Assembly (NCBI GenBank): GCA_977017645.1
Contig: OZ360252.1
Location: 17,794,001-17,858,000 of the forward strand
Origin: Torpedo marmorata
Taxonomy: Eukaryota
Length of the DNA: 64,000 nucleotides
Reading direction: 5' to 3'
In this document: piece by piece, positions 9,841-48,264 of the stretch
Layout: every line of letters begins with the position of its first letter
Position numbering within the stretch: the stretch's first letter is position 1
The notes under the pieces: model-generated
Told to the model about the DNA's origin: nothing
What the model saw: the letters and a program-made list of their open reading frames with translations, nothing else
The model's database searches: none
Translations under genes and position numbers: made by a program

Positions 9841-10866
9841 AACATATTTATCAGTAAATTGCGGAATCATTTATTAATTTAGCTGACCTGTGGACTTATT
9901 GTGCCCTCTTTTGGCTTTCATATGCACGTTCTGATGATCTCTTCTCATCCACTATAAACTTCAAAGAACTCGTTTGATAACAATCTGCTGCACCTTTCTG
10001 ACGTTCCCTTCCTTCCCTGAAAGCAAGAATTTCTTTATTTTTTCCACTGAATCTTACTATTCTATCTTCTTACCCTTACTTTCTCTTTGCTTTGTGTTTC
10101 TTCCCGAACTGGCGTATCCGCAATCACTCACCTTGCCTTATCGCAGGGAAAGGACACAGGCAATGTAAGCGTTTTGCTTACCGTTCTCCAAGAGAAGCTG
10201 TGAAGTATGGAACCGGACCGTCCTCTCCTGCAGGCGCTGCCAAGGCGGGATGTGTGAACGTCTCACTGTGAGGATTATCACTGACGTTTGCCGACCACGA
10301 AATAGGGAAATCGGGATCTATGAGAGAGAATTCTGAAATATACAGTAGATAAAGTTGAATGTTGTCCCCAGGACAAAAATAATCAAGGTCGAGGGAGAGA
10401 AAACAGGACAGGCGACTTGAAGCCATATCATCAGCAATGATAGGTTTGAATGTTGGCGGAGGATTGAGGGGCTGAATGGCCGAAAGCAGCGCGTTATTTC
10501 CATGATGTCACTGATTGTGAAAGCCTATTTGACATCATTACACAGCGAGTATGATCCAATTTCTGACTTAGGAGGGCATTGCAACAATCGCCAGTAGGGA
10601 TTTAATGCATCTCAGTGACGCGAAAGTGCCTTTTTTGGGAGCCGGTGGCAAGGCAGAGTTTATGGTTCCCACTGCCGTTCTTGTGCAGGTTTAACTTGCA
10701 GATTGACAGCCCAGGAGAAACACGAAATATTAATTAGATACGTGGATCATACTGTAGTATCAAATGTGTCCGAGTAAGACATGAAACTGCACCTTAATAA
10801 AAAAAATATCAATGCTTTGCTTCACAGACAACAGTTTAATGCGAGTCTAACTGAGACAGAACTCAC

Positions 10867-10998
10867 CAGTGGTGTTGGTATCACCGTTGACAACCGTCAG
10901 CATGAGCGGATCATCAGCACCACTACCCACGCGGAACTGACAGTCTTGGGAATCAATGGTTTTGTTCTCAGCGCGGTCATAGTCGGCAGGATCCATAT
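10867..10998 (-). CDS. SRCR receptor cytoplasmic exon 3 (DMDPADYDRAE...DTNTT)
   Basis: Acceptor TTCCTCCTAG, donor G|GTGAGT, 132 nt, phase 1-1, open frame. DYD.AE resembles WC1-type YDD motifs. If unspliced, the frame stops at 10847. Confidence 0.75.
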
Positions 10999-11442
10999 CT
11001 AGGAGGAAGTAAAGATTGTCAATGACAAAACAGAGTGACATTCCTCCAAATAATTGTGGAGTAGCGAGCTATATTTCGCTTAATGCAAGGTTTTGTTTCT
11101 CGCGTGATGTACAGTTTGACGGAGGAAAAATGTTGATCATCGTGCTGGATCTTCACGACTGAACCGCGCAATTAGACTGCGTGCTCATTTCATATTTCAG
11201 TGCCTGTGAAGGACTCGGATTAAACAAACAATGGCCATTGTTTCGTTCCATTGCACAACTGGCTGCACTCGAGACATTTGTTTCACATTCAAACTTGTTC
11301 ACAAGCTACTTATAACACAAACCCATTTTAAATATCGTTATCTTCTCCGTATTTCACGGCGTACAAATCTGCATAGTTTCTGATCACAAACAGATTTATG
11401 TAAAATAAGATAAAGTGGAAAGTCCTAAAAAAACTGTCAAAC

Positions 11443-11553
11443 CATGAACACGGGAACTGTTCTCATGAGGATGTTCTGGCTCCAGAAAAACACCATCCGA
11501 AGGGTCGCTCGTATAATATTCAATTTGATTGATGAAATCAATGGAACCAGACG
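11443..11553 (-). CDS. SRCR receptor cytoplasmic exon 2 (ASGSIDFINQIEYYTSDPSDGVFLEPEHPHENSSRVH)
   Basis: Not in the ORF track. Acceptor CTTCTAG, donor G|GTTTGA, 111 nt, phase 1-1, open frame, acidic and Tyr-containing. Confidence 0.7.
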
Positions 11554-11734
11554 CTAGAAGTCAATGTAATTGACAGTTATTGTAGAGATTAATTTGAGAA
11601 TTGAGGCAGAATTCATAAATGCTTTACTATGAAAATGATGGTATCGTGATATGCCACAGACACCTTTGCGGAATACCGTTCAATGCAACAACCCGGCTTC
11701 CTCATGACGTGAATGATATTATCTTAGGGAAGAA

Positions 11735-11915
11735 GCACTTTCCGGGCATTTAATCCCGTTAAGCCCAATTACATTCAATTAACCTACAACCCCATACGTT
11801 TTGGAGTTTGAGACTAAAACGGATCACCGGGGAAAACCCACGCAAAGTACGGGGAGAACCTGCAAACTCCTACACACAGCTCCGGATTCGAACCCCGGTC
11901 GCGACGCTAAACGTG
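11735..11915 (-). mobile_element. tRNA-derived SINE (HE1/V-SINE-like)
   Basis: GGATTCGAACCC (reverse complement of the B box); ACGGGGAGAAC..CAAACTCC core; similar to 12633-12855. Confidence 0.75.
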
Positions 11916-12239
11916 CCAATTTTGAGATAATCTACATCCATTTGATTTTAACGGCAGGCCGGCTGAGCAGAACACAACATTCGGAAATGCCGGCCATTTC
12001 ATTTTTTTAAAGAAAAACCACGTCTAATAATGGAAAAGTGTACACAACCACGTTGCACGTGTGATCACCGACATAGAGGCAAAGATAGTTTGATTATCAT
12101 GGCCATCCTTCATATGAGATATTTGTTCGCATCTACTCGATATTTTCATAACAAATAATATGGGAAGAGGAAGAAGACTTAACGACACAGTTCGAAATTC
12201 TCCCATCAGTAAATGTAAAATTTAAAATTTAAATTTAGA

Positions 12240-12632
12240 ATGTTTGGTGTTCCTTTATCACCTATTATCAGAGTTTATGATTCCTCATGATTTGAAGTTT
12301 TATTATTTCTGCAGGTCAGTGCAATTCTGGGGTGGGGGTAGGTTGTAGGTTAGCTTAGATTGCTTTAGTTTTTATAAAATAATGTATTCTGATGAAATTA
12401 CTATATTATCTTTTTTTGTGGCTTAGTTCTTTTTATACCTATTAGTATTATAATACTAAATTGTAAGGAAAAATAATTGATATATATCTGTAATATATAC
12501 TGTGTTATGGATGGATTAATGGAACATGTGATAATGCTTTTATTTGCTTTTTTCTGTAAACGTATAGAGTGAATGAACTGTTATATTCATCATTTTATGG
12601 AATTAATAAAGAGATTTAAAAAAGAAAGAAAG
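12240..12632 (+). mobile_element. L1 3'UTR fragment inserted in the tail of a SINE
   Basis: T-rich 3'UTR, AATAAA and A-rich tail; 10-bp TSD TAAATTTAGA at 12230-12239 and 12633-12642. Confidence 0.6.
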
Positions 12633-12855
12633 TAAATTTAGACATACAGCATGGTAACAGGCGCTTTCGGCCCACGAGCCCGGGCCGCCCAATTACACTC
12701 AATTGACCTACAACCCCCGGAGTAAAACGGAGCACCCGGGGTAAACCCACCCAGACACGGGGAGAACTATAAACTCCTTACAGACAGCTCGGGATTCGAA
12801 CCCCGGCCCTGATCGCTGGCGCTGTAACAGCGGCGTTGCGCTAACCGCGAGCTAA
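12633..12855 (-). mobile_element. tRNA-derived SINE (HE1/V-SINE-like) with CR1-like 3' end
   Basis: On the minus strand: A box-like GCGGTTAGCG, B box GGTTCGAATCC, central core, and a 3' end GGGCCGAAAGCGCCTGTTACCATGCTGTATGTCT shared with CR1 tails. Confidence 0.85.
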
Positions 12856-13326: not shown

Positions 13327-13453
13327 CTGTGGAAGTGAGGCTGAAGTTTATTCTCTGTAACGCAGATAAACTTTAGGAATGTGCCACAAAGTGAAGTTTG
13401 AATAAAATATGACCCATAGCGTATCCGAATGCACCGTGAACTTTGAAACTCAC

Positions 13454-13564
13454 CTCGTCTCCGCGACCTTGTCTGTACTATCGTCATCAGCGCGATTAGC
13501 TCAGCGAGGAGGAGGACCCCAAGGGTGATGCATGCGGCAACCATGATTGAGGGTGTCTTGTATC
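13454..13564 (-). CDS. SRCR receptor transmembrane exon (GYKTPSIMVAACITLGVLLLAELIALMTIVQTRSRRR)
   Basis: Acceptor TTAG, donor AG|GTGAGT, 111 nt, phase 1-1; hydrophobic helix followed by the basic stop-transfer RSRRR. Confidence 0.88.
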
Positions 13565-14952: not shown

Positions 14953-14988
14953 CTGAATCGTTGGAGCCAGCAGCCGACAAAACGGGAT
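14953..14988 (-). CDS. SRCR receptor stalk/linker exon (DPVLSAAGSNDS)
   Basis: Acceptor CCACAG, donor AG|GTATTT, 36 nt, phase 1-1; keeps the frame between SRCR7 and the TM exon. Confidence 0.65.
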
Positions 14989-15106: not shown

Positions 15107-15418
15107 CAGAACAAAAGACAATGACGTCTTCCTTATGGTCACAGTCGTGTTGGCTGAGTTGTGAGGAGCGACAGCTGGAGAGAAGGGATTCACTTCCTTT
15201 GCATTTCACTTCATCCAACCAGATGTCACCGTCGCCGTTGGCAATGATCGATTCTCCTGGGGTCCAACGAGCAGGGCCACACCCCAACTGTCTGCAGACT
15301 ACATCAGCGTCGGCCAGATCCCAGGAGTCGTCACACACCGTACCCGAACGATTATTCCACACTATCTCCAACCTTCCGGAGCAACGGGTGCTGCCGCCAA
15401 CCAGCTGTAGTGACAGTG
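15107..15418 (-). CDS. SRCR domain 7 exon (group B, 8 Cys)
   Basis: LQLVGGSTRCSGRLEI...GTVCDDSWD...VVCRQLGCG...WLDEVKC...CDHKEDVIVFCS; CTTCTCAG acceptor, G|GTACGT donor, 312 nt. Confidence 0.95.
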
Positions 15419-15661
15419 CTGAGAAGAGCAGGAATAAAATTATTTTAATTAATTTCAAGTGAGAGACAGGTGAAATACATTTCACGTAACGTTGCGTGAA
15501 CTGAATCACCTGCAATGTTCGATTCTGATTCTTCATGGCAGATCTTTCCCTTATCGGATCCCTCCGGCACTTTGGTTTCTGTTGGCAAGAGGAACATGGT
15601 GACGGATTTGTACATCTATGTTTAAAATGTCAGCCGCCGTTTCATGGCTCCCTAATTTTAC

Positions 15662-15979
15662 CTTCACAAGCAACGCCTGCATCATCCTTGTGCTTACAGT
15701 TGTGTTCTCCCCAAGGGGCTGATTTACATTGCCAGAGGGTTGACTCGTGCGATGAACAGTCCAGATCATCGAGCCATATTTGCCCAGATCCTTGTCCATA
15801 TTTCGCGGCATCAATTTGAAATGATTTGTGGGGTCCACATTTTAGTTGTTTACAAACCACATCTGCAGCGTTCAGGTTGAATCCATCGGAGCACACTGTG
15901 CCCCACGTCCCATTGTACAGCACTTCCACTCTTCCTTCACATCGATGCCGTCCGTTCTTCAGGCGCATTTCTTTGTGAT
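15662..15979 (-). CDS. SRCR domain 6 exon (group B, 8 Cys)
   Basis: MRLKNGRHRCEGRVEVLYNGTWGTVC...WLDDLDC...CKHKDDAGVACE; TAG acceptor, AG|GTAAAA donor, 318 nt. Confidence 0.95.
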
Positions 15980-18764: not shown

Positions 18765-21700
18765 CACGGAGTCTGGTGCTGTGGAAAATAAGGGAAGGAG
18801 GAAAAAGTGGCGCGTTGTAGTGATAGGGGATTCCATCGTTAGGAAGACAGTTGAGAGGTTCTGTGCATCCGGATGGTATGTTGCCTCCCTGGTGGCAAGG
18901 TCTGGGATATCTCAGTTCAAGTTCACGACATTCGTAGGTGGGAGGGTGATCGGCCAGATGTCGTGGTCCATATAGGGACAAATGACATAGGTAGGAAGGG
19001 TGTGGACGTCCTGAAAGGAGAGCTCAGGGAGTTTGGCGCTAGGTTGATGAGGAGAACCTCCAGGGTACTGATCTCAGGATTTACTCCAATGCTTCGTGTG
19101 GAGAGGTTAGAAATAGGAGGATAAGGCATCTTAACACGTGGCTGGGTCATGGTGTAGTAGGGAGGGCTTCAGGTTTATCGACCAGTGGGCTCTGTTCCAG
19201 GGAAGGAGGAATCTGTATCGACGGGATGGATTGCATCGGAACTGGAAGGGGATTAATATCCTTGCGGGTAGGTGTGTTAGTGTTGTCCCGATGGGATTAA
19301 ACTAGATTTGCAGGGGGAGGGGAAGCAGATTTTTAGAGCAGTTAGTGAGAAGGAGGTGGATAAGGGTCATGCGAAGACTGCATGTATAGACAGAAATCAA
19401 AGGTTTGTACGTGATAGAAATTTTCTCAGTTGTATTTATTTTAACGCAAGGAGTATTTTCAGAAGGAATGACGATCTTAGGGCATGGATCTACACTTGGG
19501 ATTACGACATTATTGCTTTCAGTGAGACTTGATTGCAGGAGGGGCAGGACTGGCAGCGTAATATTCCGGAGTTCCGTTGCTTCAGACGTGATACAGGGGG
19601 AGGGATGCAAAGGGGGAGGAGTGGCAGTGCTCGTCAGGGAAAATATCGCAGCTGTGCGAAGTGAGTACAGCCAGGAGGGTTTGTCTACAGAGGCCATATG
19701 GGCGGAGTTGAGGAACGGGAAATGTGTGACCACACTGACAGGGTTGTATTATAGACTGCCCAAAAGTCAGAGAGGATTGGAGGAGCAAATATTTAGAGAG
19801 ATAGCAGACCGATGTAAGAAGCAGAAAGTTGTGATAGTTGGAGATTTTAACTTTCCAAATATTGACTGGGACTCCCATAATCTGAAAGGGCTGGATGGCT
19901 TGGAGTTTGTGAAATGTGTTCAGGATAGTATTCTAAATCAATATATTGATGTACCAACGAGAGAGGATGCAGTACTTGATCTCCTATCAGGGAACAAGAC
20001 AGGTTAGGTGGCAGATGTATGTGCAGGCGAACATTTTGGGGCCAGTGACCATAATGACATTAGCTTCAAGTTAATTATGGAAAAGGGTAAGTCTGGTCCT
20101 CATGTTGGGATTCTAAATTGGAGGAAGGCAAATTTTGTGGAAATGAGAAAAGATCTAGGAAGAGTGGATTGGGATATGTTGTTTTCTGGCAAGGGTGTGT
20201 TAAGTAAGTGGATAGCCTTCAAAGGCGAAATTGTGTGAGTGCATAGTTTGCATGTTCCTGTTAGGATTAAAGGCAAATTTAGCAGGCAAAGGGAACCTTG
20301 GTTTTCAAGGGATATTGGCGATCTGGTTAAGAAGAAGAGGGAGGTGTATAGCAAGTATAGGCAACAAGGTGCTAATGAGATACTTGAAGAGTACAGAAAA
20401 TGCTGGAAAATACTCAAGAAGGAAATCACGAAGGCAAAACGAAGACATGAGGTTGCTTTGACAATAATGTGAAAGTAGTTGCGAAGGGTTTCTTCAAGTA
20501 TATTAAGAGTAAAAAGATAGTAAGCTACAAAGTTGGTCCCCTAGAGGGTCAGAGTAGTCAACTATGTGTGCAGCCTCAAGTAATGGGGTAGATCTTAAAC
20601 AATTTTTCTGCATCAATATTTACTCAGGAAACTTGCATAGTGCATAAGGAAGGACGGGAAATAAACATAAGTGTAATAGTACATAATTCGCTGAACGTTG
20701 AATCACACATAGATAGCGTGGTGAAGAAAGTATTTAGTATGTTGGCCATAAATCAGAGCATTGAATACAGGAGTTTGGATGTCATGTTGAAGTTGAATAA
20801 GGCATTGGCGAGGCCAAATTTGGAATATTGTGTGCAGCTTTGGTCGCCGAATTATAGGAAGGATATAAACAGAATCGAGAGAGTGCAGAGGAGATTTACA
20901 AGAATGTTGCCAGGGTTTCTGGGTTTGAATTACAAGGACAGGTTGAGCATGCTGGGACATTATTCCCTGTAGCGTAGAAGTTTGAGGGGTGATTTAATAG
21001 AGGTATTTAAAATTATGAAGGGGACAGATAGAGTCAATGTGGACAGGATTATTCCATTGAGAATGGGTGTGATACAAACAAGAGGGCATGGATTGAGATT
21101 GAAGGGGAAAAGTTTAGAGGAAGCATGAGGGGGAATTTCTTCACTCCGAGGGTGGTGGGAGAGTGGAACGAGATTGCGACCGAAGTGGTAGATGCAGGTT
21201 TAATTGTAATGTTTAAGGAAACTTTGGATTGTTATATGGACGAGAGAGGTGTGAAGGGTTTGGGGCCTGGTGCGGGCCAGTGGGACTAGGTGGGAGAAGA
21301 TGTTCGGCATGGACTAGAAGGGCCGAACTGGCCTGTTTCTGTTCTGTAATTGTTATATGGTTATATTGTTATATGAAACATATTGGGATTAAGGAGGTGG
21401 AAGTGCTTGCTGCCTTACAGTGAATAAAGGTAGATAAATGCCCCGGGCCCGATATGATATTCAGTCGTACATTGAGGGAGACTAGTGTTGAAATTGTAGG
21501 AGCCCTGGCTGATATATTCAAAATGTCCATAGCCACAGGTGAGATGACAGAGGATTGGAGGTTAGCATATGTTTTCCCGTTTTTTAAAAAAATGGCTTAA
21601 AAAGTAAACCAGGTAATGATACGCCGGTGAGCCTGACGTCAGTAGTAGGTAAACCATTCTGAGCAGTTCTCAGAGATAGGATATATAGGTATCTGGACAG

Positions 21701-22991
21701 CCATGGGCTGATTAAGGACAGTCAGCATGGCTTTGGCTTGTTAGATCGTGTTTAACGAAACTTGTCGAGTTTTTGCAGGAGGTTACCAAGACAGCAGATA
21801 AAGGAAAGGCTGTGGATGTTTTCTACTTGGACTTTAGTAAGGCCTTTGACAAGGTCCCACACGGGAGGTTAGTTCCAAAGGTTGAGACATTATGTATCCA
21901 TGGAGAGGTTGTAAACTAGATTCGAAATTCGCTGTGTGGGAGAAAACAGAGAGTGGTAGTAGATGGTTGCTTCTCAGACTGGAGGCCTGTGACTAGTGGT
22001 GTGCCTCAGGGATTTGTGTTGGGACCATTGTTGTTTGTTGACGGGATCAATGATATGGAAGATAATTTGGTAAATTGGATCAGCAGTTTTCCTGATAACA
22101 CAAATATAGGAGCCGTTGTGCACAGTGAGGAAGAATTTCAAAGCTTGCAGAGGGATCTGGACCAACTTGGAGAATGGGCCAAAAATGGCAGATGGAGTTT
22201 AATGCAGAGAAGTGTGAGGTGATGCATTATGGAAGGGCAAAGCAAGGTAGGACATACACAGTAAATGGTAGGGCACTGGGGAGTGCGGAGGAGCAAAGCG
22301 ATCTGGGAATACAGATACATTGTTCCCTGAAGGTGGCGTCGCAGATGGACAGGATTGTAAAGAAAGCTTTTGGTATCTTAGCCTTTATAAATCAAAGTAT
22401 TGAGTTTCGGAATTGGAATGTTGTGTTGAAGTGGTTTAAGACATTGGTGAGGCCATATTTGGACTATTGTGTGCAGTTCAGGTCATCTAACTACAGGAAA
22501 GATATCAGTAAGATTGAAAGAGTGCAGAGAGGATTTGCTAGGATGTTGCCGGGACTTCAGGAGTTGAGTTACAGGGAAAGATTAAACAGGTTTGGAATTT
22601 ATTTTTTGGAGCGAAGAAGGAAGGGAGGAGATTTGCTGGAGGTTTACAAGATTATGAGAGGTATAGACACACTGATGCGAGTAGGCTTTTCCACTCAGAT
22701 TGGGGGAGATAAATACGAGAGGTCATAGTGTTAAACTGAAAGGGGAAAGGTTTAGGGGGAATATTAGGGGAAAGTTCATCAATCAGAGAGTGGTGGGAGT
22801 GTGGAATGGGCTGCCATCTGATGTGGTGAATCCGCGCTCGATCTTAGGTTTTAAGAAAAGATTGGATAGATACATGGATGGGAGAGGTCTGGGGGTTATG
22901 GAGTGGGAGAAGATCAAGCGGAATAGTGGTTGGCACAGACTAGAAGGGTCGGATGGCCTGTTTTCTTTGCTGTAGCGTTCTGTGGTTCTAT
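18765..22991 (+). mobile_element. Near full-length CR1 LINE: ORF1 SGNH/GDSL esterase plus ORF2 EN-RT, decayed
   Basis: VVVIGDSIVR, VCCLPG, VVVHIGTNDIG (esterase); GGGVAVLV, VGDFNFPNIDW, SDHN (EN); SKAFDKVPH, GVPQGFVLGPLLF (RT); tail TTCTGTGGTTCTATG. Confidence 0.92.
20677..21372 (+). mobile_element. Innermost CR1 3' fragment (TTATATGG-tail subfamily)
   Basis: ORF2 C-terminus RPNLEYCVQLWSPNY and the tail TTATATGGTTATATTGTTATATG interrupt the linker region of the host CR1; same subfamily as 50325-51775. Confidence 0.8.
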
Positions 22992-23269
22992 GGAGATGAT
23001 GAACAACTTCTTTTCCCAGAGGGCGGTGAATCTATGGAATTCGCTGCCCATTGAAGTATTGGAGGCTACAATAAATATATTTAAGACAAGGTTGGATAGA
23101 TTTTACATAGTAGGTGAATTAAGGTAATGGGAAAAAGGCAGGTGGGTGGAGATGAACCCATCATCAGATCAGCCATGACCTCATTGAATAGCAGAGCAGG
23201 CGCGACGGCACGGGTGGCCTACTCCTTTAACTATTCCTTATGTTCAGTATTCATGGAAAGCAAAAGACT

Positions 23270-23860
23270 CTCGACTTCTTCAGGACTGCCGAAATTCTCG
23301 AAGAAGCCCGTGTAACGCGGCTGGATGTGAGGTGAATACAGGTGGGCGTGGGAGAATGCAGGGGCAAGGTGCTCGGTCAAGTGGGCAAAGGTGAAAACAA
23401 CTGCTCTCTGATAGAAGGAAGCGAAGGTGCTGGATATCTGGAGAAAGGGGACAGAGAGATGAGGGAACGAGAGAGACTGGGAGCAGGAGGTATGAGAAAA
23501 TAGAGATGTCTATATTAATGCCCTCTGGTTGGAGAATGTCGAGACGTAATAGAAGGCGCTGTTCCTCCAATTTACCAATGGCCTCAACTTGGCAGCACAC
23601 GTGGCCATGGACAAACATGTCAGTGTGGTAATCGGGTGCGGAATTGAAATGGCAGGGCACTGGAAGCTCCTTGCTGTTGCAGCGGACAGGGCAAGGTCTC
23701 AAGGAAACGTTCTCCATGTCTTCGTCCAGGCTCCCCGATGCAGAGGAGGCCACAACGGGAGCACCCGATGCAGTAAATGACTCCTGTCGATTCACAAGTG
23801 AAGTGACGCTTTCACATGGAAGGACTGTTTGGGTCTGAGTTGTTTCGGTGTGCTCACGTT
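23270..23860 (-). mobile_element. Penelope-like element 3' fragment (GIY-YIG region), decayed
   Basis: Minus-strand fragments FTCESTGVIYCIGC and PVPCHFNS..HTDMFVHG..KLEEQRLLLRLDILQPEGINID. Confidence 0.8.
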
Positions 23861-23929
23861 TATCCAAGCTCGAGCTTCTTTCGATAGGATTAATGAATCA
23901 CCTCGGATCACCTCGAAAACAACAATTCA

Positions 23930-25050
23930 TACATACGGCTGCCCTTCATCGACTACAGCTCGGCCTTCCATACCATTATTCCCTCAGTGCTAGTCAAGAA
24001 GCTACAAACTCTAGGCCTCTGTACCCCCCTCTGCAACTGGATCCTCGACTTTCTCATCGGAAGACCACAGTCAGTACGAATTGGAAACAACGTCTCCTCC
24101 TCACTGATTATCAACACAGGCGCACCCCAACGATGCGTGCTTAGCCCACTGCTCTACTCGTTATACACCCACGACTGTGTGACAATGCATAGTTCCAATG
24201 CCATCTACAAGTTTTCCGATGACACCACAATTGTCGGCAGAATCAGAAACGGCAATGTGGAAGCGTACAAGAGGGAGATAGATCAGCTCATTGAATGGTG
24301 TAACGACAAGAACATTGCGCTCAACGTCAGTAAAACCAAAGAAATGATTGTGGATTTCAGGAGGAAGTCAGGGGAACACGACCCAGTCCTCATCGAGGGC
24401 TCAGTAGTGGAGAGGGTCAAGAACTTCAAATTCCTGGGTGTCAACATCTCCGATAATCTGCCCTGGAGCCTCCACGTTGATGCAACCACAAAGAAGGCTC
24501 GCCAGCGGCTATACTTTGTGAGGTGTCTGAGGATATTCGGTATGTCACCGAAGACACTTTTAAACTTCCACAGGTGTACCGTGGAGAGCATTCTGGCTGG
24601 TTGCATCACTGCCTGGTATGGAGGCGCCAACTCTCAGGACAGGAATAAACTCCAGAGGGGTATTAACTCGGCCTGTGACATCACAGGCACCAGACTGCAC
24701 TCCATCGAGGACATCTACATGAGGCAGTGCCTTAAAAAAGCAGCCTCTATCCTCAAAGACCCCCACCACCCAGGCCATGCCCTCTTCACTCTGCTAAAAT
24801 CGGGAAAAAGGTACAGGAGCCTAAAGACGAGCACTCAACGGCACAAGGACAGCTTTCTCCCCTCTGCCATCAGATGTCTGAATAATTAATGAACCAAAGA
24901 CACTGCCTTACTTTTCGTGCACTATTATTAATATTTTTCGAAGGTAATATCGTAAGATGGTTATAATATGAATGCTTGAACCATGATGCTGCCGCAAAAC
25001 GCCGAAATTCATGACTTGTTCATGACAATTAATTCTGATCCTGATTCTAA
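23930..25050 (+). mobile_element. Rex1/Babar-type LINE, 5'-truncated, with open 300-aa RT C-terminal ORF (23987-24889)
   Basis: [68 protein letters not shown]; TCTGA(T)-type tail. Confidence 0.92.
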
Positions 25051-26238: not shown

Positions 26239-26553
26239 CTGAACACAGAACCCCAACGCCGCTGCTATCGTTGGAAAACCGAGTCAACGTGAATGTGCTG
26301 CAATTTCGGAGCTGCGATTCGGGTCCTTCACACTGGACGTCATTCACCCACACCGGCCGTTCACTCTCACCGTACATAGAGGAGTTGTAGGCTGATATGG
26401 CAGAACCGCAACGCAGCTCTCTACAGACCACGTTGGAATCATTGATGTTCCAGACGTTATCCTGCACTCTCCCCCAGCTGCCATTGTGGTAGACCTCCAC
26501 TCGGCCGTCGCAGCGGCTTCCTCCGTTGGACAGTCTGAGAGACCAATTTTCAT
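26239..26553 (-). CDS. SRCR domain 4 exon (6 Cys, lacks C2 and C7)
   Basis: LRLSNGGSRCDGRVEVYHNGSWGRVQD...VVCRELRCG...DVQC...GVGVLCS; TTTTCAG acceptor, AG|GTGAGA donor, 315 nt. Confidence 0.95.
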
Positions 26554-27318: not shown

Positions 27319-27633
27319 CTGAGCAGACGAGTCCGGAAATGTTTCCATGTGAACATTTAACTTTATCCGAGGGTGAAAACGGACAGTCGGCTATTCGGGA
27401 CTCGTTCCCCCGGCAACGGTAGCCCTCCTTCCACATAGGACCGGTTTCCTGACCAAATTGGGCACCTGCAGGAGTTTCCGTTACTGCACCGCACTGCAGC
27501 TGTTCACAGATCACGCTCGCAACTTCTAAGGTGAAGTGAACATCACAAAGGGTCCACCACTGGTCTCCGTGTAGAATTTCCACCCTGCCTGAACATCTGT
27601 TCTTCCCGCCCACTAGTCGTGGTCCATGGTTCC
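27319..27633 (-). CDS. SRCR domain 3 exon (group B, 8 Cys)
   Basis: PRLVGGKNRCSGRVEILHGDQWWTLCD...CSHGNISGLVCS; AAACAG acceptor, AG|GTGAGT donor, 315 nt. Confidence 0.95.
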
Positions 27634-29187: not shown

Positions 29188-31650
29188 TATTACAAAAATA
29201 GTGTAACCTAAAGCATCCTTAAGAAAGAATGAACTTATACCTATGACTCTTAATAATAGAGAAATGGAAATTTGGAATAGTAAAGGAATTAGATATATAG
29301 AAGACTGCTATGAAAATGGACTTCTAATGTCTTTTGAAGGACTGAAAGAGAGGTATAATCTACCTAATAGAACTTTTTTTTGCTATTTTCAGTTACGTTC
29401 ATACCTTAGGAATACTTTAGGACAAGATATGGTCCAACCCTCATTGACAGATGCGGTTAAAATACTTCATGAAGGAAATACGTATAAATTTATTTCGAAA
29501 ATGCATTTATTGTTACAAGATCAAGAGCCTAAATTGGGACATGATAAGTCCAGGATAAGATGGGAATCAGACTTAGGTATAGTAACTGATGATGAATTAT
29601 GGTCAGAATTGTGTCAGAATAGTATGCTAATTATTATAAATGTATGTTATAGATTGGTCTCCTATAAGTTTCTTCATCCATTATATTTGACTCCACAGAA
29701 ATTACATAAATTTAAACCAGAATTATCAGAGATGTGTTTTAGATGTGGAACGGAGGTTGGTTCTTTTTTACATTCAACATCAATGTGCTGTAAATTGAGA
29801 CAATTGTGGCATAATCTCTGTGACATCTTACCTAAAGTTATTGGATTTACTCTAATTTTAGATCCAGAGATATGCCTTTTGGGAAATTTTACTACTATTA
29901 AGGACACCATAACCAGATATCAAATTATATTTTTTGGAATAGCTTTTTGTGTGGCTAGAAAGTGCTTAATGACTACTTGGAAGTCAGATTCCCCATTCTC
30001 TATTGATAGATGGACTTCAGAAATGAATAGTTGTATTCCATTGGAGAAAATTACCTATAACATTAAAAACAAAAGATTTTTGAAATAAAATTTGGCAACC
30101 TTATTTAGATTATCTGGGATCAGGATAAATTAAATTAAAGAAGATTTGTTATTAATTTGTTTTGGGTTCCTTCACACGATAAGCCCTGTTGCTGGGAAGC
30201 CTTGGAGTTTTTCTTTTATATATTTGAAATTAGTAATTATATAAACATTGTCGACCATTTGTTTTGTTTAGTTTGTTTTTTTTTCTTTTGGGAGGATTGG
30301 GGTAATTGTTTTTTTTTAATCTTTATTATATATGTTACTTTTATTGTATTACTATATAATGTGATATCTGTTTTTTGAAATATTTTGTTTCATTAGTTTT
30401 TTTGAATATTTTATTTTTTTATTTTTAAAGTCCATAATATAAACGGAAAATATACAATGTACAACTATATACAACATTATAATTAAACTCTCCCTCCCTC
30501 CCCCATCTTAAAAAAGAAAATAAAACATACAAAAGAAAAGAAAGAAAATGAAAAACTAAACGTACCGTTAGTGCTGACATTGATTTTTCAATCTTTTTGG
30601 AGGTGCCACATTGTTAAATATTTCTACGCTATATTGTATTGTACTTTAGGGTTTGAATTAGAACTGGACCCCAATATACTCCAGGTATGGTTGCCACACC
30701 TTTACAAGTGTATCGTATCTATTCCTGAGATTGTATGTAATTTTCTTCATGGGAATACAGCTGTGCATTTCTGCTGACCATCGAGTGATTTGAAGGGGGG
30801 AGTCGGACTTCCAAGTGACGGCTATACATTTTTTGCTACGGACATAGCAACTAGCACAATTAAATTTGGAATTTATATCATTTGTAGCTAATGTCCATTA
30901 GATTTCTGAGGAGATACAACTCCGGGTCCAGGGGAAAGGCTACCCCCGTAATTCTGGTTAGTGTATTAGATATATCATACCAAAAGGGTCCTACCTTTGC
31001 ACAGGACCAAGTGGAATGCAGGAAAGTTCCAAATTCCCCACCACATCTGAAACACATTTCCGATATTTCAGATTTTGATTTGTGTAACTTTTGTGGTGTG
31101 AGATATAGTTGGTGCAGGAAATTATGTTGGACCAATCTTTATATAGCATTAATAACCGTCGTCATACTATTCCTACACCAATCTGACCAGCAACGTTCCT
31201 GAATTGTCGTACCAAAGTCCGACTCCCACCTCTCCCTCGATCTATGTATACCTGGCTTCGGGCTTTCTCCTTGGAGCACAAAATGCATTCTGGATATAAT
31301 TTTGAGTGCATTTCCCAGTCGAAGTAACTGTTCTACCTCGTTGCTTATAGGTGGGGTCATTGCAGGACCCCACCATTCTCGCAAGAAGGATCTTACTTGG
31401 AGAAAACAGGGAAAGGTTCTATTAGACAAATCATATTTACCTTTGAGTTGTTGAAAGGACTTAAGCTGTCCTTGTCGGAGCAGTCTTCAATATATCAAAC
31501 ACCCTTCTGATACCAAACCTTCCATATTTTATTACCTAAAATCATGGCTATATGTTCATTTTGATACAGAGGTGCCTTGGGGTATATTGTTTGATTGTTT
31601 GTTAAGCATCAAAATAAAATATTATAAAAATAAAAAATTAAATAAAAAAA
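29188..31650 (+). mobile_element. Middle L1 3' fragment nested in the outer L1
   Basis: 281-aa ORF with CFRC..VGSFLH and IPLEKITY; A tail at 31610-31650; TSD AAAAGATAGTTG at 29176-29187 and 31647-31658, at a TTT/AAAA site. Confidence 0.88.
30393..31609 (-). mobile_element. Innermost L1 3' fragment nested in the 3'UTR of the middle L1
   Basis: Minus-strand ORFs FLHQLYLTPQKLH..CFRCGGEFGTFLHSTWSC and RERWESDFG; T-rich tract near 30395-30427 is the reverse-complement tail. Confidence 0.85.
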
Positions 31651-33413
31651 GATAGTTGAAGCTAAATTATTATCAATACATACATCCTGAAAACATTTGA
31701 TACCCAAATTAAACCATTCATGAAAAGCAGAATCTTGCACAGAAGGTGTAAAAAAAGAATTAAACAATATATGGCTGGTAAGTAAAAATCTATGAAATAA
31801 AAAAAATCTAAATTGGAACCAAATTCTCAAAATTTGTTTAACAACAAAACTATCGGTTAATTTGGAAGCATAAAAAGGCAATAGTATCGAAATAAGAGAA
31901 TATTTTTCGTGGAATTAATTTCTAAATTAATCCAATTTCGAGCATCAATTCCATCCTTACAGTGAATCCAAAAAATTATACGTCTAATATTAGCTGCCCA
32001 ATAATAAAACCTAAAATTAGGTAAACCAATCCACCTTTCTTTTTAAAGTTTTGAAGGAAAATCTTTTTAAGACGAGGATGCTTATTTCTTTCAAATATAT
32101 GAGTAAATAATTCAGTTAAGTGAAGCAAAAAAGTTTCAGGAACAAAAACAGGAACACCTTGTAAAATGTACAAAATTGTAGGTAAAATATTCATCTTAAT
32201 CACATTAATTCGCCCAATTAAGGACATCGAAAGAGGAGACCACTGAGATAAAGACTTCTGAACATGATTCAATAAAGTAAGAAAATTCTCTTTAAACAAA
32301 TTATTATAATTTTTGTAATAGTTATACCAAAATAATTTAATTTATTTTAGCTATTTTAAAAGGAAGGGAAGTATCTAAAGAACCAGAAGAGTTCAATACT
32401 AGCAACTCGCTTTTCTGAAGATTTAATTTATAACCTGCAAATTGGCCAAATTGATGAAGCCATGATAGAATGGATGGAATTGAACGATCAGGATCTGAAA
32501 TGTACAGCAAGAGATCATCCGCATATAAGGAAACCTTATGAACACTTCCACATCTTAAGATTCCAAAAATATCATTAGATTGGCGAAAGGCCACCTCTAA
32601 TGGTTCTAACGCCAAATTGAATAACAAAGGGCAAAGAGGACAAACTTGCCTAGTTCCACGGTAAAGATTAAAAGGTTTCGATTTTAAAGAGTTGGTAACG
32701 ATTAAGGCAACAGGGGATAAATATATCAATTTCATCCAATTGAAAAAATTTAGGGCCAAAATTTAATTTTTCTTACACTTTAAATAAATAGTCCCATTCC
32801 ACCCTGTCAAAGGCTTTTTTAGGAATCTAAGGAAATAACACACTCAAAGGATGAGAGAGGAGGAGAATAGAGAATACTTAAAAAGCGATGGATATTAAAC
32901 TGTGAATAACGACCCTTAATAAAACCGGTTTGATCTTCAGAAATAATAAGAGGCATAATGTTTTCCAACCGACAGGCCAATATTTTAGTCAAAATCTTAG
33001 CAGCAGCATTCAAAAGAGAAATTGTTTCCCGGTCTTTACGGCCTCCCAGCTGAGTTTTACAAATCTTTTTCTCAAACATTCGCACCCTATTTAGATTCAT
33101 TTTTTTCTGAATCTTTTACTTTTGGGAAATTACCTGCTACTTTTTATGAAGCTTTAATTTCACTTATTTCCAAAAAGAATTTCCTCCTTCTGAAGTCCAC
33201 ATTGAATTCAATGAACAATGTTGACCAAAAGAAAATGATTACATTTTTAACATGTATAAACGCTATCCACTATGAAATAAACGTGAAATAGCAATGAATT
33301 ATACAGGCGAATTTTATGTGCACGTCGTAACAGGAAAATATCCATAACGGATTCCCGTGTTCCATGGACAATTGAAATCAAATGCTTGCATTCTTCAGAA
33401 ACCGGGTCCTTAC

Positions 33414-33725
33414 CAGAACAGATCACATCGACTCCAGTTTTTTGGTTGCAATGATGAGTTCCTGAAGAACGTGGACATGCCCATAAGGTTGACTCATCGC
33501 CCTTACATTCAAAGATATCCGTCCGGACAGGGCCAGTTCTCTCTCCAAAATCAGCTCCGCTCCACACAGACACGGCGACTCCGCATTGAAGCTGATGGCA
33601 CACCACATCGGCATCATCCATATCCCAGTGATGGTCACACACGGTGTACCAGGTGTCACCAAACATCACCTCCAGCCTTCCAGAGCAGTGGTCATCTCTG
33701 GAAACCAATTTTGGTACTCTGTGAT
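33414..33725 (-). CDS. SRCR domain 2 exon (group B, 8 Cys)
   Basis: HRVPKLVSRDDHCSGRLEV...TVCDHHWD...VDVICS; TTTCTCAG acceptor, G|GTAAGG donor, 312 nt. Confidence 0.95.
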
Positions 33726-39362: not shown

Positions 39363-40724
39363 CTGAAACAAAACAGAAACATCAGCACTGGGATCGCCAG
39401 CGTCTCGTTCCGCGTCTCGGCGCACCGCGCTCCCAGCTCACAGCCGCTCACCCATTCAACGTCCACACATCTTCAACGGAAGGGCCAGTCTGTGGTTACC
39501 CCGAATAAACTGCCTAAAGTGGCGAATACATGCAGTCATTTGGTAAACGTCCCAAGTACCGGGAGTCACACGGTTGTTCTAGGGAACAAGGCGGCTCCCA
39601 GGACGAGAGGGGCGTGCCCGTTTACACTCTCCAGAGAGCGGCTGATGGGAGAGTCGTGTCGGAGGCCGGTTGTAGCCAGTTCCCATCGCCATGTAGTGGA
39701 CCGAACAAGTGGTGTTGGTATGAACCTATTCTGGAAACTGAACATCAAAGGAGAAAGCGTTGGAGTGGGTCTTCAGCACGACAAAGGTGGGGTAAACTGT
39801 GGGAGCTCATTTGCACCCCGGAACAAAGTCAACGTGGTCAGTGCACGACACCGCGCCGTTCAGAAACCTGTTTGATTGTCGCCCACGTGAATTTAGCGGT
39901 CATCTCTCAGCTGCAAATCTTTAGTAAAAACCAGTCTCAGCAGCCCCACACTAAACACAGTGAAACTTAAATGCCATGACCTGATCGGTCAGCCAGACAA
40001 TACCTGAGGCGGTCTGGAATGAGAAATAAAGAATTATATTTGGCTCTAGGCGGCCTGTGGGTTTCGGATGTGCAAGGGCGGGTTTCATGGGGAGGCCGAA
40101 CAACAAATTAATAAACTCAAAGGAAAAATAACCGACAGCAAACTGAGGGGTGTGTTTGAACACATCGACGGAGAGTCTGTTACAGCAAATAATTTAAGAA
40201 TCACACCTGTTTTTCTTTATTAATGAAACTGCAATCAATCCTCGGCAACTATTAATTCACATTGTGCCTTCATTAAGAACAAAAATAGATTTCAGATATG
40301 CTGACATCACGGGTAGGATTTTCCCCGTGAGCTGGATGTCACGACTGATTAGTTTTCTATCTCCAGGAGACACGACGATTGCTGATAATGAATCTGCTGC
40401 TGCCACCGTCATGGGACAATTTGCTGCGTTAGCGGGTTTTCGGCCGATCAGATGAGGGCATCTTCACTCGCCTTTCTCCGTTGATCTGGAAATTTGTTGT
40501 AATGTCATTCTATTTATTCCAGTGGAAAGTGACTGATGCAATCAATGGAGAATAACCTTCTCTTTGCCCCCTGCGCTGCTTATGATTGTGGCGATCATTC
40601 TGTCTCGAGCTGCGATTCTCATTTGAATTTGAAATTTCACAGGCAAAGTTCCATATGCCACACACGTTCATGTTCATGTGTCAGCTTCCTGCTGTTGAAA
40701 TCTCCGGGATAACGAGCAAGATTA

Positions 40725-41572: not shown

Positions 41573-43490
41573 AGTAAATGTAAAGAAATTACACAATTCA
41601 AATGATCAAAGGAAGGAATTAAATATCTGCGAATAAAGATTGATACAAAATTAGCTAATTTATATAAATTAAATTATCTACCATTATTTACGAAAATTAA
41701 AAAAAATTTAGAAAGTTGGAAGGATTTACCTATAACTTTAATAGGAAGGGTAAACTGTATTAAAATGAATATCTTTCCAAGAATTCAATATCGTTTCCAG
41801 TCAATTCCTTACGAAATTCCTTTGAAATTCTTTAAGGATTTAAATTTATTTATAAGGATTTTTTTGTGGAAAGGAAAGTTGGCTAGATTAAGTACAGAGA
41901 AATTAACTTGGAACTGTGAAATAGGTGGTTTACAACTTCCTAATTTTCAAAATTACTGTAAAGCAGCTCAAGTAAAATATGTTATTGGAATGTTTGATTT
42001 AGGGAAGTATTTTGCTTGGATTAGAATAGAATTAAATAATATAGGAGAAGATTTGAAAGAAGAAGTTATTTATAAATGAAATTCTAAATTACATTTAATA
42101 AGAGGGAAGAATTCTCCTATTTTTAAACATTTGTTAGAAATATGGAATAGAGTGGATAGTGAGATAGGAGGGAAAGGCTCAATTTCTCTAAAAATGCCTC
42201 GATATCAAAATAAACCTATTCCATTTACTGTTGATAATCAATTATTTAAAATTTGGTTCCAAAAGGGAATTAAGAAAACAAATGAATGTTTTGAAGCGAG
42301 TAAATTTATTACTTTTGAAAAAATGAAAGATGTTTAATGTATCGAATCATACACTTTTTGTTTATTATCAAATTAGAGCATTTTTCGTTGGGAAGTTAGG
42401 TTATAGTTTGATTCTACCAAGATAGAGTGAACTAGAATTATTAGTTACTAATGGAGGCGTAATTAAATTTATTTCTCAAATGTATAGATTGTTTTAGAGA
42501 AAAATCCCGAAAGTAGGAATTCATAAATCAAGATTAAAATGGGAATCAGATTTGAATGTAACAATAGATGAAGACCATTGGAAAGAATTATGTAAATTAA
42601 GTATGACGGAGATTATTAACGTTAGATATAGATTAGTTCATTATAAATGTTTTCATCAATTATATTTAAAGCCTAAAAAATTAAAGAAATTTAGTTCGAC
42701 ATTATCAGGTTTATGTTTTAGATGTAATAGAGAGGAAGGTTCTTTTGTACATTATACATGGTTTTGTCCAAAGATATATGATTTTTGGTTGAAAGTAAAA
42801 AACCTTTTAGATAAAGTATTGAATATTACACTTCCATTGGACCCTATGATATTTTTGTTTGGAGATATTAAAATAATTAGTATTAATATGAAATTAAATA
42901 TGTATCAAATAGAATTTTTGCGAATTTCTTTAGCTGTTTCTTACAAATGCATTGCTATTACTTGGAAATCTGATGTAGATTTAGGGTTAGAGCGATGGCA
43001 TGCAGAACTTCGTTCATGTATACCACTTGAAAAAATTACTTATAATTTACGTAATAAATACCATTTATTTTTGAAAATATGGATACCACATATAAAAGCT
43101 GTTGGTTTTAGGATTTGAATCTCCAGACATCGCATCTGTCTGGCGAACCTCTCCTCCACAATAAAATCAGTTTATAGATATACTTTTTAGATTGACATTC
43201 TCTTTACTCTATCTTTTCCTTTCTTTTTTTATTATTTTAGTAGATTAGTATGGGCTCCCCGTGCTTTCGGCGTGGTTGTCGGTTACGCCGTACAGTGTAC
43301 TGTGCGACTCAGCTGCACCTCATCGGTGAGTCGGTGTGAGTCAGTGGGGTGGGAGTGTTAGGGAAAGAAGGGAGGGAGGGGGGTGAAAATGTATCACATG
43401 TAATTTGATAATTATATATTTTAATTTATGTACTTCGTGATTTAAAATTTTAAATAAATATATTTTTTTTAAAATAAAAATAAAAATAAA
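41573..43490 (+). mobile_element. L1 3' portion (about 1.9 kb) with 21-bp TSD; same subfamily as 9014-9840
   Basis: LIGRVNCIKMNIFPR, GGLQLPNF, CFRC, IPLEKITYNLRNK; (AAAAT)n tail; TSD AAAATTAAYTCCTGATTATTT at 41552-41572 and 43489-43509 with one mismatch. Confidence 0.9.
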
Positions 43491-44925: not shown

Positions 44926-45699
44926 CACGTCATTCCCCTGCACTATGTTTTAGTCACTGATGTTTTCATTAAGAAATATCACGAAGTAAATCCGTCATTT
45001 AAGGAGCCGCATGATATAATGGCAAATTGCACAAACGAGATCTACATTCAATTCAAATGATGTAAACTTTCAAAAATAATAAAATTTTAGTTTGCATGGG
45101 AATGTTAGTCTGGGCCTCATTTTGTAAATTGTTCACGGAGATATGTTTGTGTTAATGTTTTCGCATTTGCAAAGCTATTTTCATTAAATAGCAATGCAAA
45201 CACGGTTTTACGATCTAACCGCTTTTAGCATCCAGAGAAAGAAATATACACGGACATAAACAGAGTCAAACACTTTACGCATCAGACTGACCCGTCATCT
45301 TGACAGCAAAATCTTTGCGATTGACAGCGATTGACAAGCCAGAGAACAGCTGAGAATTGTCACCAGTGCTCAACACAGGGCACGGAGCCAGAGGAAATAC
45401 AGTGAAGAAGCTCCTGGTAAGTCATCAAATGCGGCCGAACATATTACGGAAAACGTTGGGAAACGGCAAATCGTGTTTGGACAAACGAGCATGCAGCAGG
45501 AAATGGCAGAATCCTACCCTTTCAGACGGTGAGCATTTGCACTTGATGGGGATTAACATATATATTTAGATATTTACTGCCGACTTTGAGAAACTATGCC
45601 ATCGACCGAGAAGCGCACTCAATATTCATGTCAAGGAAGGGGACGGAGATTAAGAAACAAGGTCTCATGTGTGCCTTTATTTTAGATACCAATTGATAA

Positions 45700-46055
45700 G
45701 ATGATGAGAGACATTGACCGTGTGGATGATCAGAGACATATACGCAGGGGTGAAATGGCCAATAAGAGAGGGCACAAATTAAAGCTTGGGATAAGTCCAG
45801 GCGGGATTCAAGAGGTAGGTTTTGTCACACAGAAACCTCTGGGTGCATTGAATGCGCAATCGGCAAAGTGCGGGAGGGACGTTCAATAATATATTTTAGG
45901 AAACTATTAGATTGGTCCATGGAACGGTGAAAAATGAAGGGTGATGTAGTCGGAACATTCTCCGCAGCTATTAGATTAGGTTATTAAGTCGGCACAGCAC
46001 TGTGAGTTGAAGTGCTTGTACTGTGCTGTAGATTTCTATGATCTATGTTCTATGA
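45700..46055 (+). mobile_element. CR1 3' fragment
   Basis: MMRDIDRVD..RGHKLK; tail TTCTATGATCTATGTTCTATG. Confidence 0.75.
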
Positions 46056-46139
46056 TAGAAATCTTCAAAAAAGAGAAAAACAACATCTAAAAACGCAACT
46101 GATTAGGCAGCACTTGAGGAAAGAGACACGAAAAAATTA

Positions 46140-46905
46140 GTGGCGCTGCCAGAGCTGCTGTAACGGCAGCGCTGCCGCTGGTGCGGAGCCACGGAGAGCG
46201 GTAGCGGAGATATAGCGTTCCCTGAGGGGTCCAAGCGCCCAGTCTGTCTATTCCGCTCTGTACAAGCTTTAAACGGCCTGTAAATAGAGCCGACGGTGGT
46301 TTTATTTGAACATCCCGCGACCACGGGGTCTGGCCCAAGATGACGGCGCCTGTGATCGGCAGCAGCCACGAGGGGTTGCAGTCTCCAGGGAAGCGGACAC
46401 CAGAAAACGGGGAGACCAACCCACGTTTAAGAAGATGAAGCAGAGGAGACCACCCATGGGACGGTGACCACGGCGGCGCACTAGTGAGGAGATCTGAGGA
46501 TGAAGAACACACAGGCGGCGGGCTGTTGATGACTCGGGGCGAGGGACATATGCAGGCTGCGGGCTGCTGATGACTGCGGTCGAGGGATTCACACGAGGCT
46601 GCGGACTGCTGCAGACTGGCTCGAGACTGGCTGAAGGGGTACCAGGTATCGGAAACGGTGTGCGAGAGGGTGACGGGGGCGCTGAAGGTTTCCTGATCCG
46701 TCGGACGTTCCGATCTGAGCTCGGGCTGCGGATGGTTTGGACTGGACTCTGTGTGGCTGGGGGAGCGCTGGAAGAGAATTCACGGACACTCGGTGATCTG
46801 GGGAGACTCTTTTGCTTCTCTTTCTCTGAATGTAAGAGGCAGTCTAAAGCAAATTGCATGTAATATTGCACGGTTTTATAACATGGCATAAAGTAATCGA
46901 GTTAT
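46140..46905 (+). mobile_element. GC/CpG-rich non-autonomous interspersed repeat
   Basis: An inverted homolog lies at 55855-58040 (shared TTTAAA..GCCTGT.AA..GAG.CGAC, CGCGACC.CGG..TCTGG.CCCAAGATGA.GGCGCC and TGTAATATT). Confidence 0.65.
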
Positions 46906-48218
46906 CTTTCGTTCTGTTTTTATTAACACAAATGCTGCCCATTCTGTTTAATATTCACTCTGCTTCTCCGTCCTCAGATACCGCTGTTCGGAGGAGGCTT
47001 TCACTCAAATGTTTATCCAACGTTTTGCGTTTCAGGTGAAGTTTATGAACGACACAAATAATCCAGCCACCATTTGTCACTAAATTGACAGAAAACCTTC
47101 CACCTGAATGTAGCACGTGGAAAGACATTTGGAGCAAAGCTTCAAATCAACTCTTTTCCGCACAAAAACGGGAAAGTGCATTTTGATTTTTAAAAATTGT
47201 CGCTTTTCTCCGGGCATAATAAAGGGACACTGAACATTTAATTTGAATCATAATGTCACACGTTTGAGGAAAATTGATTACAAATTAAACTCCGCCATTC
47301 TTTGGAAATTTCAGTTCCACCATCCTCCAATATGTGTGTTTAAGACTAATAACGAATTAATGTGAATGTTTAGTTTTCATTCTCAATCAGGGTCACATTT
47401 CATGATGAAATATATAAATCCTTCCCAATAACATGATAGTAAATACAGTTTTTGAACTCCTTCATTTCACTGCATCGCACGGTGTGTAGAAAGAGATGTG
47501 ACTGATAATCATCAGCGTCAGGAATGTGTTCGCCGATTCAGTCAGCAGCAGCTGCAGGTTCGGCTCTCTTCTCACACGCTGAGTTTACACACTCCGGCCT
47601 CTGAATATACTCTTTCCCAGCAATGAACGCCCCTCTATTTCTTATGACCCAAGGCTATTAATCTTATTCAAAGATGAGCTCACAAGAGCCGCGGGGTTAA
47701 TGTGCAGGCGATTTGAAACGACGGAATATATCAGCGTCACCTCTGCAAAATTCTACTCTTCCCAGAAATATTGACGGGAAATTACAATATCACCATCAAT
47801 GTAAAGTAATCCAAATATTTATACTGTCGCCGGCTGAAATGAACACGCGTATAATAACAAACACAACAGTAAGTGTTACCATGGACTGCAAAATAAGCAA
47901 TACATTTCACTGTCCATTCTCGGTGTCAGGAATTTGAATTAGCTTAACCTTCTCATTCCTTCTCCCCTTGTGCTCTAAATATAAGACAACTTAAAGAAAC
48001 AATTGGATGGGTGAAAAATTCACCGCTGGGGGATATATTTACAGTGTTAATAAACTGAAGAAATTTCACCACAATGAAAACATTCAGAGACAAAAAAAAT
48101 ACGTTTGCTTCCTCTGCTCCTCAATGTTCAGTAATTCAATAGTCGATTGAAACGAAGCTAAATTTTAATTATGATCATCTTTGCAAATATAAACCGGATT
48201 CTACATTAATAAACTCAC

Positions 48219-48264
48219 AGTTCCAGATGAGCACTTTCATCAGTATCAAGAGGGACCGCAGCAT
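48219..48264 (-). CDS. Candidate leader (signal peptide) exon of the SRCR receptor, MLRSLLILMKVLIWN
   Basis: ATG with A at -3, in-frame stop upstream, 46-nt hydrophobic frame, phase 1 consensus donor GTGAGT. Needs an intervening small exon because direct splicing to SRCR1 creates TAG. Confidence 0.5.

Follow-up and report, generated by a model that had tools for sequence, protein, structure and literature searches.

Arrays of WC1 and CD163c-alpha genes, which encode group B SRCR receptors, have been described for ruminants, pigs, chicken and platypus in the literature searched, and have been associated with species in which gamma-delta T cells abound. Ruminant WC1 has the domain order a-b-c-d-e-d-b-c-d-e-d', with 13 genes in cattle (PMC3511184). 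According to the accessible portions of three sources (PMC5949365; PMC8356672; PMC2906472), WC1 binds bacteria via its SRCR domains, a1 included, concatenates with the T-cell receptor (TCR) of gamma-delta type and needs the tyrosine of its YEEL motif, and most clones express one to three WC1 genes. The available part of PMC2906472 classes six chicken genes as WC1/CD163c-alpha hybrids and gives a Y-(Q/E)-(D/C/E)-(I/L) tail motif as a feature of WC1 and CD163c-alpha; chicken has at least 18 genes. A CD163-like gene marks tcrg/tcrd cells in cod, as an excerpt of PMC9276791 reports. For cartilaginous fish, no description of the family was found in the literature searched, where coverage of subscription journals and supplements is limited. 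Here we analyse a stretch of 64,000 nucleotides (nt) from the ray Torpedo marmorata (assembly GCA_977017645.1, contig OZ360252.1, positions 17,794,001 to 17,858,000; the window). Its minus strand carries what we read, with moderate confidence, as an intact member of a family of about 53 WC1/CD163c-alpha-type type I SRCR receptors with a selected outermost domain, the tip, likely acting as germline-encoded, microbe-binding lymphocyte co-receptors.

The receptor gene consists of 16 exons (two leader, seven SRCR, linker, stalk, transmembrane (TM) and four tail exons) that yield 995 amino acids (aa) with zero internal stops; we infer their splicing from the sequence. Every SRCR, stalk, TM and tail exon inside 10847-48264 lies on the minus strand with AG/GT sites in phase 1-1. 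An earlier note on this DNA had joined 12 such exons, stop-free and with canonical splice sites, into seven SRCR domains, a stalk, a TM helix and a tail. That model is confirmed here and enlarged by leader 1 (48264-48219), leader 2 (40013-39981), the linker (15578-15510) and a probable tail exon 4 (10317-10178). The exons are as follows.

48219..48264, minus strand: leader exon 1, with the ATG and the first half of the signal peptide; 54 copies in the array described below (53 minus, 1 plus), 0 in the control
39981..40013, minus strand: leader exon 2 (33 nt), end of the signal peptide; precedes domain 1 in 74 fetched copies and in skate homolog P0147
39048..39362, minus strand: SRCR1, a-type, without C2 and C7, the hypervariable tip
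33414..33725, minus strand: SRCR2, b/c clade, eight Cys; two sequence classes in the array
27319..27633, minus strand: SRCR3, b-type, eight Cys
26239..26553, minus strand: SRCR4, n-type (diagnostic of CD163c-alpha/SCART), without C2 and C7
17953..18267, minus strand: SRCR5, d position, acidic cation-site residues intact
15662..15979, minus strand: SRCR6, e clade
15510..15578, minus strand: linker exon between domains 6 and 7, 69 nt, 23 aa, one Cys
15107..15418, minus strand: SRCR7, d' by position only, acidic cation-site residues intact
14953..14988, minus strand: stalk exon
13454..13564, minus strand: TM exon; the helix contains a Cys and a Glu and is followed by basic stop-transfer residues
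13219..13326, minus strand: tail exon 1, with the YEEI motif
11443..11553, minus strand: tail exon 2, with two Tyr
10847..10998, minus strand: tail exon 3 (donor 10867; a short tail results from read-through to the stop at 10847)
10178..10317, minus strand: probable tail exon 4, with a stop

By tblastn, exactly seven SRCR exons lie in the 64-kb window, and a motif scan places all of them on the minus strand; each encodes one group B domain with six to eight Cys. Window exons 2-7 and one paralog's domain 1 pass Pfam PF00530 at 89-117 bits, and the strongly hydrophobic 19-residue windows of the 995-aa product are confined to residues 801-826. Both stretches of N (134 and 165 nt) interrupt the intron that follows domain 1, and neither is long enough to conceal an SRCR exon. 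The two-exon leader is supported by skate protein P0147, in which a homologous leader precedes a homologous domain 1. Two 3' ends of the gene appear plausible. The tail, previously put at more than 115 aa, would be about 129 or about 169 aa depending on which is used. The gene end first proposed, at 10847, retains its read-through stop in 39/39 paralogs examined, with a polyadenylation-like hexamer within 60 nt of that stop in 35/39; the acceptor of tail exon 4 is AG in 23/23 copies, 11 of which stop 9 codons earlier.

The TM 24-mer, allowing up to two mismatches, matches 73 sites, 53 on the minus and 20 on the plus strand, all on contig C75 between 14.18 and 19.05 Mb, with 0 in the control. 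The array, which spans 4.9 Mb of one contig, also holds 75 matches to the domain-1 exon (74 minus; control 0). A paralog count, proposed earlier as a check, thus gives about 53 tandem copies, the window gene included. The TM region was fetched for all 53 minus-strand units, and 8-30 exons per unit were sampled, which is partial coverage: domains 6 and 7 and the TM are present in 53/53 units, 37 have no defect in the sampled exons and 16 have at least one. No SRCR exon was found outside the array in 40 kb on either side. WC1 is linked to the CD163A locus in cattle and to the MHC chromosome in chicken. In the ray genome, MHC-I exons lie on C80 and C39 and calsyntenins on C60 and C42; these contigs and that of the array may be pieces of one chromosome. 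One MHC class I exon has nurse-shark 6LUP (PMC8236899) as its best match, at 105 bits with the next at 86, in keeping with a cartilaginous fish. EMG1 and FUOM were not found in synteny searches of the genome.

Most units (39/53) have one domain-1 exon, 13 have two to six, and one, a decayed neighbour, has zero. Ten of the 13 multi-domain-1 units sit behind a single leader 1. One unit is built of four open leader2-1-2-3-4 cassettes and another of six leader2-domain 1 cassettes, the innermost frameshifted. These multi-cassette genes, each with just one leader 1, lie at C75:17160000-17238000 and 17487000-17605000 (L228-L232, L216-L227), and some of their cassettes are identical; such genes may encode very long ectodomains or allow alternative tip choice. 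The window gene's upstream neighbour (C75:17869000-17886300) is decayed and more divergent, with stops in domains 3 and 7, a frameshift in domain 2 and a dead TM donor, and its leader and domain 1 were not found in that locus (L099, L233). A lone plus-strand leader1-leader2-domain 1 (C75:18468704-18477960; L214, L047) is an inverted 5' half, 10 kb before a plus-strand TM relic. Domains 2 (L061-L100) and 6 (L166-L195) each occur in two sequence classes, with about 84% and about 88% identity to the window copy, respectively.

The 20 plus-strand TM copies (L011-L030) belong to an inverted block of about 3 kb, from the TM to tail exon 3, at roughly 76-82% identity to the window gene. They have dead donors and frameshifted tail exons, a stop directly after the TM in 19/20, internal stops in 3/20, and the 5 kb upstream of them are free of SRCR exons. 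Their TM exon diversity is 0.039 against 0.042 and 0.044 in the flanks, with nonsynonymous differences (pN) exceeding synonymous ones (pS). The idea that they are paired tail-less receptors was rejected in view of the dead donors, frameshifts and missing TM constraint, and they are regarded as neutral relics.

For domain typing, trees drew on 1,582 SRCR domains from 120 database proteins, including sheep WC1, goat WC1-like, a serow fusion model, and macaque and otter DMBT1, and were without CD163b, CD5, CD6, SSC5D, mammalian SCART and chicken hybrid sequences. Domain letters were given by position after the accessible part of PMC2906472, and groups were named from a first, quick 128-row tree. 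Raw BLAST scores were unusable for this purpose, because generic SRCRs score top. In the 93-row tree obtained by dropping 35 redundant rows, ruminant a is the partner of domain 1 (98/87), b/c that of domains 2-3 (96/89), the n-position domains of teleosts that of domain 4 (97/91) and e that of domain 6 (98/93). In a wider tree, made by adding 11 domains and removing 46 of the 128 rows, domain 1 and domains from skate, sawfish, bamboo shark and chimaera form a clade of cartilaginous fishes (100/95), nested in an a-type clade (84/89) where ruminant a stands among bird and turtle domains keeping eight Cys. The same tree recovers b/c at 97/98, places domain 6 in the e clade (98/96) and domain 5 with teleost d-position domains (90/87), and unites domain 4 with a tinamou SCART1-like domain (P0162) and teleost domains (97/97). 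Among named single-domain relatives of domain 1, a skate protein has the highest identity (67%). Parallel loss of C2-C7 gives the better tree, and a single origin of the cartilaginous-fish and ruminant tips without C2-C7 is not rejected (approximately unbiased (AU) test, p 0.37). No window domain groups with DMBT1 in the trees, or with CD163A-type h-k in the 93-row tree (h-j in the wider one), and the YREM motif is absent. An Atlas search with domain 4 returned generic SRCR clusters only.

The layout is best described as a-b/c-b-n-d-e-linker-(d' by position), a hybrid that combines the a of WC1 with the n of CD163c-alpha, and membership in the WC1/CD163c-alpha branch of group B SRCR is very probable. 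Judged by its sequence, the receptor is not DMBT1, CD163A or strict WC1. The strict-WC1 layouts without n (a-b-c-d-e-d-b-c-d-e-d' or a-b-c-d-e-d') are not matched, as domain 4 is n-type; the window model has none of the near-identical repeats, CUB or ZP of DMBT1, and its layout is unlike three-domain CD5/CD6 and secreted five-domain SSC5D. The earlier note had assigned the gene to a WC1/CD163/SCART class. The family holds, given the a, b/c, n and e types and the tail motif, but the gene is a WC1/CD163c-alpha hybrid and not WC1 proper. The per-domain phylogeny it had advised puts window domains with WC1/CD163c types and none with DMBT1, and its guess that automated pipelines would use a DMBT1-like label agrees with the many such proteins that carry it. 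Layout and tail motif are found in teleost proteins too, and the family is not restricted to cartilaginous fish.

Domain 1 is where the copies differ. Of its 75 exons, 74 were recovered, and 73 are open: 70 at standard length and 3 with one extra codon, the remaining one being frameshifted. The 70 standard copies encode 64 distinct peptides with a mean identity of 80% and a minimum of 67%. The ratio of nonsynonymous to synonymous substitution (dN/dS), by the Nei-Gojobori method with codon bootstrap, a pairwise estimate that ignores gene conversion and shared ancestry, is 1.60 (1.19-2.23) for domain 1. The comparison covers domains 1-4, 6 and 7, not 5, with domains 2-4 sampled mainly from closest matches, and gives 0.73 for domain 2 (27/40, shorter class dropped), 0.31 for domain 3 (30/32), 0.36 for domain 4 (29/31), 0.57 for domain 6 (46/46) and 0.26 for domain 7 (43/45), the last under purifying selection. 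Sites above 1.5 bits number 17 in domain 1, 5 in domain 6, and 0 in domains 2, 3, 4 and 7. Exon diversity of domain 1 (0.105; 71 copies) exceeds that of its flanking introns (0.069 and 0.050), while the TM exon is less diverse (0.037) than the introns beside it (0.070 and 0.073). Diversifying selection is confined to domain 1 among the domains tested.

In DMBT1, ligand binding proceeds via cations held by D1019, D1020, D1058, D1059, N1081 and E1086, according to the portion of PMC7043408 available. Mapped through the 93-row alignment, 6/6 of these positions fall within the 24 domain-1 sites above 1 bit (Fisher p 9e-5). Window domain 1 has S, Y, W, S, G and S there and is without the C2-C7 disulfide, while domains 5 and 7 have kept acidic residues in this site. 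AlphaFold models of 20 domain-1 paralogs reached a predicted local distance difference test (pLDDT) score of 44 and were not used. Since the outermost domain differs strongly between copies, the array is likely to provide a heritable repertoire of sensors for microbes.

The helix and tail vary little in their key residues: the TM Glu is found in 53/53 units and the TM Cys in 51/53, and YEEI in 48/52 tail exons, with YEDI in one more. In CD3 and DAP12 complexes, pairing takes place between acidic and basic TM residues. A TM followed by a YEE[LI] or YEDL tail is common to sheep, goat, serow and several teleost proteins. Tail-based homolog searches gave 3 candidates without a score and 3 matches that are unrelated repeat proteins; they yielded no full-length ortholog from a shark or another ray, and the Glu counts refer to this genome.

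One further gene lies in the window.

1714..3367 (1714-1837, 2475-3367), plus strand: two-exon GPR139-like class A G-protein-coupled receptor (GPCR), 338 aa, by Pfam 7tm_1 and the Atlas name

This GPCR stands tail to tail with the receptor and is co-duplicated across the array; the window copy is intact. The best 40 of 1,910 genome-wide candidates all lie inside the array. In 24/30 copies its exon 2 is open over the whole length, with a dN/dS of 0.76 (0.48-1.22), and the GPCR may therefore be a passenger. In chicken, the neighbours of WC1-like genes are olfactory receptor genes, as the available part of PMC4988538 describes, which may be a parallel to the GPCR neighbourhood here, with no homology implied. 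The introns and spacers of the window are occupied by decayed LINE-like insertions (18800-24900, 28400-33100, 41600-43200, 50575-51774 and 5200-7850) with reverse transcriptase (RT)-like open reading frame pieces of up to 400 aa. Two elements at 53230-54820 and 55900-57520, labelled Tc1/mariner-like from their appearance, have long terminal inverted repeats and opposite orientation.

How the receptor might work can be outlined from these features. Each tip would recognise a set of ligands of its own on microbial surfaces, with no need of the usual calcium bridge, while the conserved domains 2-7 would hold it out from the cell. Ligand binding would cluster the receptor with an antigen receptor, most likely the gamma-delta TCR, and phosphorylation of the YEEI tyrosine would then amplify the antigen-receptor signal. 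As with WC1 in cattle, the number of copies expressed per cell may be one to a few. Pairing within the membrane, with itself or with a basic-residue partner, is likely promoted by the TM Glu, which is the weakest step.

Several observations weigh against this reading. The pairing of domain 1 with ruminant a (98/87) drops to 80 without the C2/C7 columns and is lost without the 24 variable columns; with more taxa the kinship reduces to the broader a-type clade (84/89), and in the wider tree domain 7 stands apart from d'. The variable positions of domain 1 correlate with those of ruminant a at rho 0.34, no better than with control SRCR repeats (0.38-0.47), which suggests that SRCR loops are generally tolerant. 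To the limits of the pairwise dN/dS and of the closest-match sampling given above can be added that tail exons have dN/dS of 0.6-1.1 with wide intervals, so that constraint is not proven, and that conservation of the TM Glu is weak evidence, because 19/20 dead plus-strand copies keep it too. Finally, residue 10 in the core of the signal peptide is Lys, not Ile, in the window copy alone (1/32 leader exons), and may be a real variant or an assembly error.

The same family could instead be used on myeloid or natural killer (NK)-like cells, where it would supply variable receptors for phagocytosis or activation that are unconnected with the TCR. We hold this to be rather unlikely, although it fits all sequence evidence equally. 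CD163A, which also has b, c, d and e domains, is a macrophage scavenger according to the accessible text of PMC2906472, and the TM Glu, which the sheep, goat and teleost homologs displayed do not have, hints at a different partner. The missing CD163A-type h-k domains and YREM motif count against this alternative. The selection itself leaves its driver unnamed, and the tips might have diversified toward polymorphic self ligands (MHC-like or other) or in escape from pathogen entry, particularly as SRCR domains usually bind microbial polyanions through the acidic cation site, which the tip has lost. However, cattle WC1 a1 binds Leptospira, and sheep and goat a domains are likewise without C2-C7; a paired subfamily of inhibitory type did not turn up, the 20 copies without a tail being relics. 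We give microbe sensing clear preference over this self-ligand or escape explanation, whose probability we put low.

Lower still stands a mostly neutral or mis-assembled expansion, in which segmental duplication multiplied the units, with the GPCR and repeats taken along, and domain 1 is merely relaxed. The dN/dS of the passenger GPCR, the 16 defective units of 53 and the identity of some domain-1 copies would agree with it. For domain 1 it is largely refuted, as the dN/dS interval excludes 1, the exon is more diverse than its introns and 73/74 copies are open; moreover, the introns of the copies differ by about 5-11%, a divergence that false duplication would not produce. A diversified lymphocyte co-receptor family thus stays our preferred reading. 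A more ambitious combination we regard as speculative and, taken jointly, improbable: a germline SRCR repertoire of cartilaginous fishes on the scale of KIR/Ly49 with at least 64 tips, in which the calcium site would have become an antibody-like variable patch after loss of C2-C7, independently of ruminant WC1, the TM Glu would dock on a TCR- or NK-type chain, and tips would be chosen by alternative splicing among up to six leader2-tip cassettes behind one promoter. If it were true, variable gamma-delta co-receptors would date from the origin of jawed vertebrates.

The locus adds a counted 53-gene array, a near-complete tip repertoire, the cation-site overlap, multi-cassette genes and a co-duplicated GPCR. 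A 53-gene array with a selected tip, together with tips of this type in skate, sawfish, bamboo shark and chimaera, would place the design at the root of the jawed vertebrates. Because a single binding face is available here in dozens of natural variants, the ligand question for SRCR tip domains becomes directly testable, and the receptor is a candidate surface marker for T-cell subsets of sharks and rays.

Compared with known systems, the ray receptor resembles the chicken WC1/CD163c-alpha hybrids (GgCD163_1 and _8, a ... c-n-d-e-d' in the available part of PMC2906472) in its N-terminal a-type domain, n-d-e cassette, YEE[IL]-type tail and multigene nature, but its domains 2-3 look b-like rather than b-c and it has 53 copies. 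With ruminant WC1 it shares one exon per domain, a variable domain 1 without C2-C7, a linker before the last domain, a tandem array and a multi-exon tail with a YEEL-like motif. It differs from WC1 in a basic form of seven domains, with n present, no internal b-c-d-e-d repeat and a TM Glu, and the array has about 4x the gene number of cattle WC1. The linker exon sits where sheep WC1 and the teleost homologs, too, have a linker, just ahead of their last domain. The woodpecker and turtle a-type domains retrieved keep C2 and C7, unlike ray domain 1. Among the ruminant models, goat P0068 has 13 a-type domains in series, which recalls the ray genes with several tips, and serow P0113 fuses CD163A to a WC1 gene; database names in the WC1/CD163 family are unreliable.

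Mammalian CD163c-alpha/SCART1-2 (m-l-b-c-n-d-e-d') likewise has an n domain without C2-C7, the d-e cassette and the tail motif; the ray receptor, in contrast, starts with an a-type domain, mammals have one or two genes, and the CD163c-alpha tail of cattle takes up two exons, that of the ray gene four or five. DMBT1/SALSA shares the group B SRCR fold, whereas the ray receptor has heterogeneous domains, a TM and a tail, and is without CUB/ZP. The teleost 'M130-like/DMBT1-like' receptors (eel P0028, knifefish P0097, loach P0107) are similar in layout, (a-b)n-b-c-n-d-e-linker-d', followed by a TM and YEEI, but most of their a-type domains keep eight Cys, and those displayed have no charged TM residue, which sets the TM Glu of the ray receptor apart.

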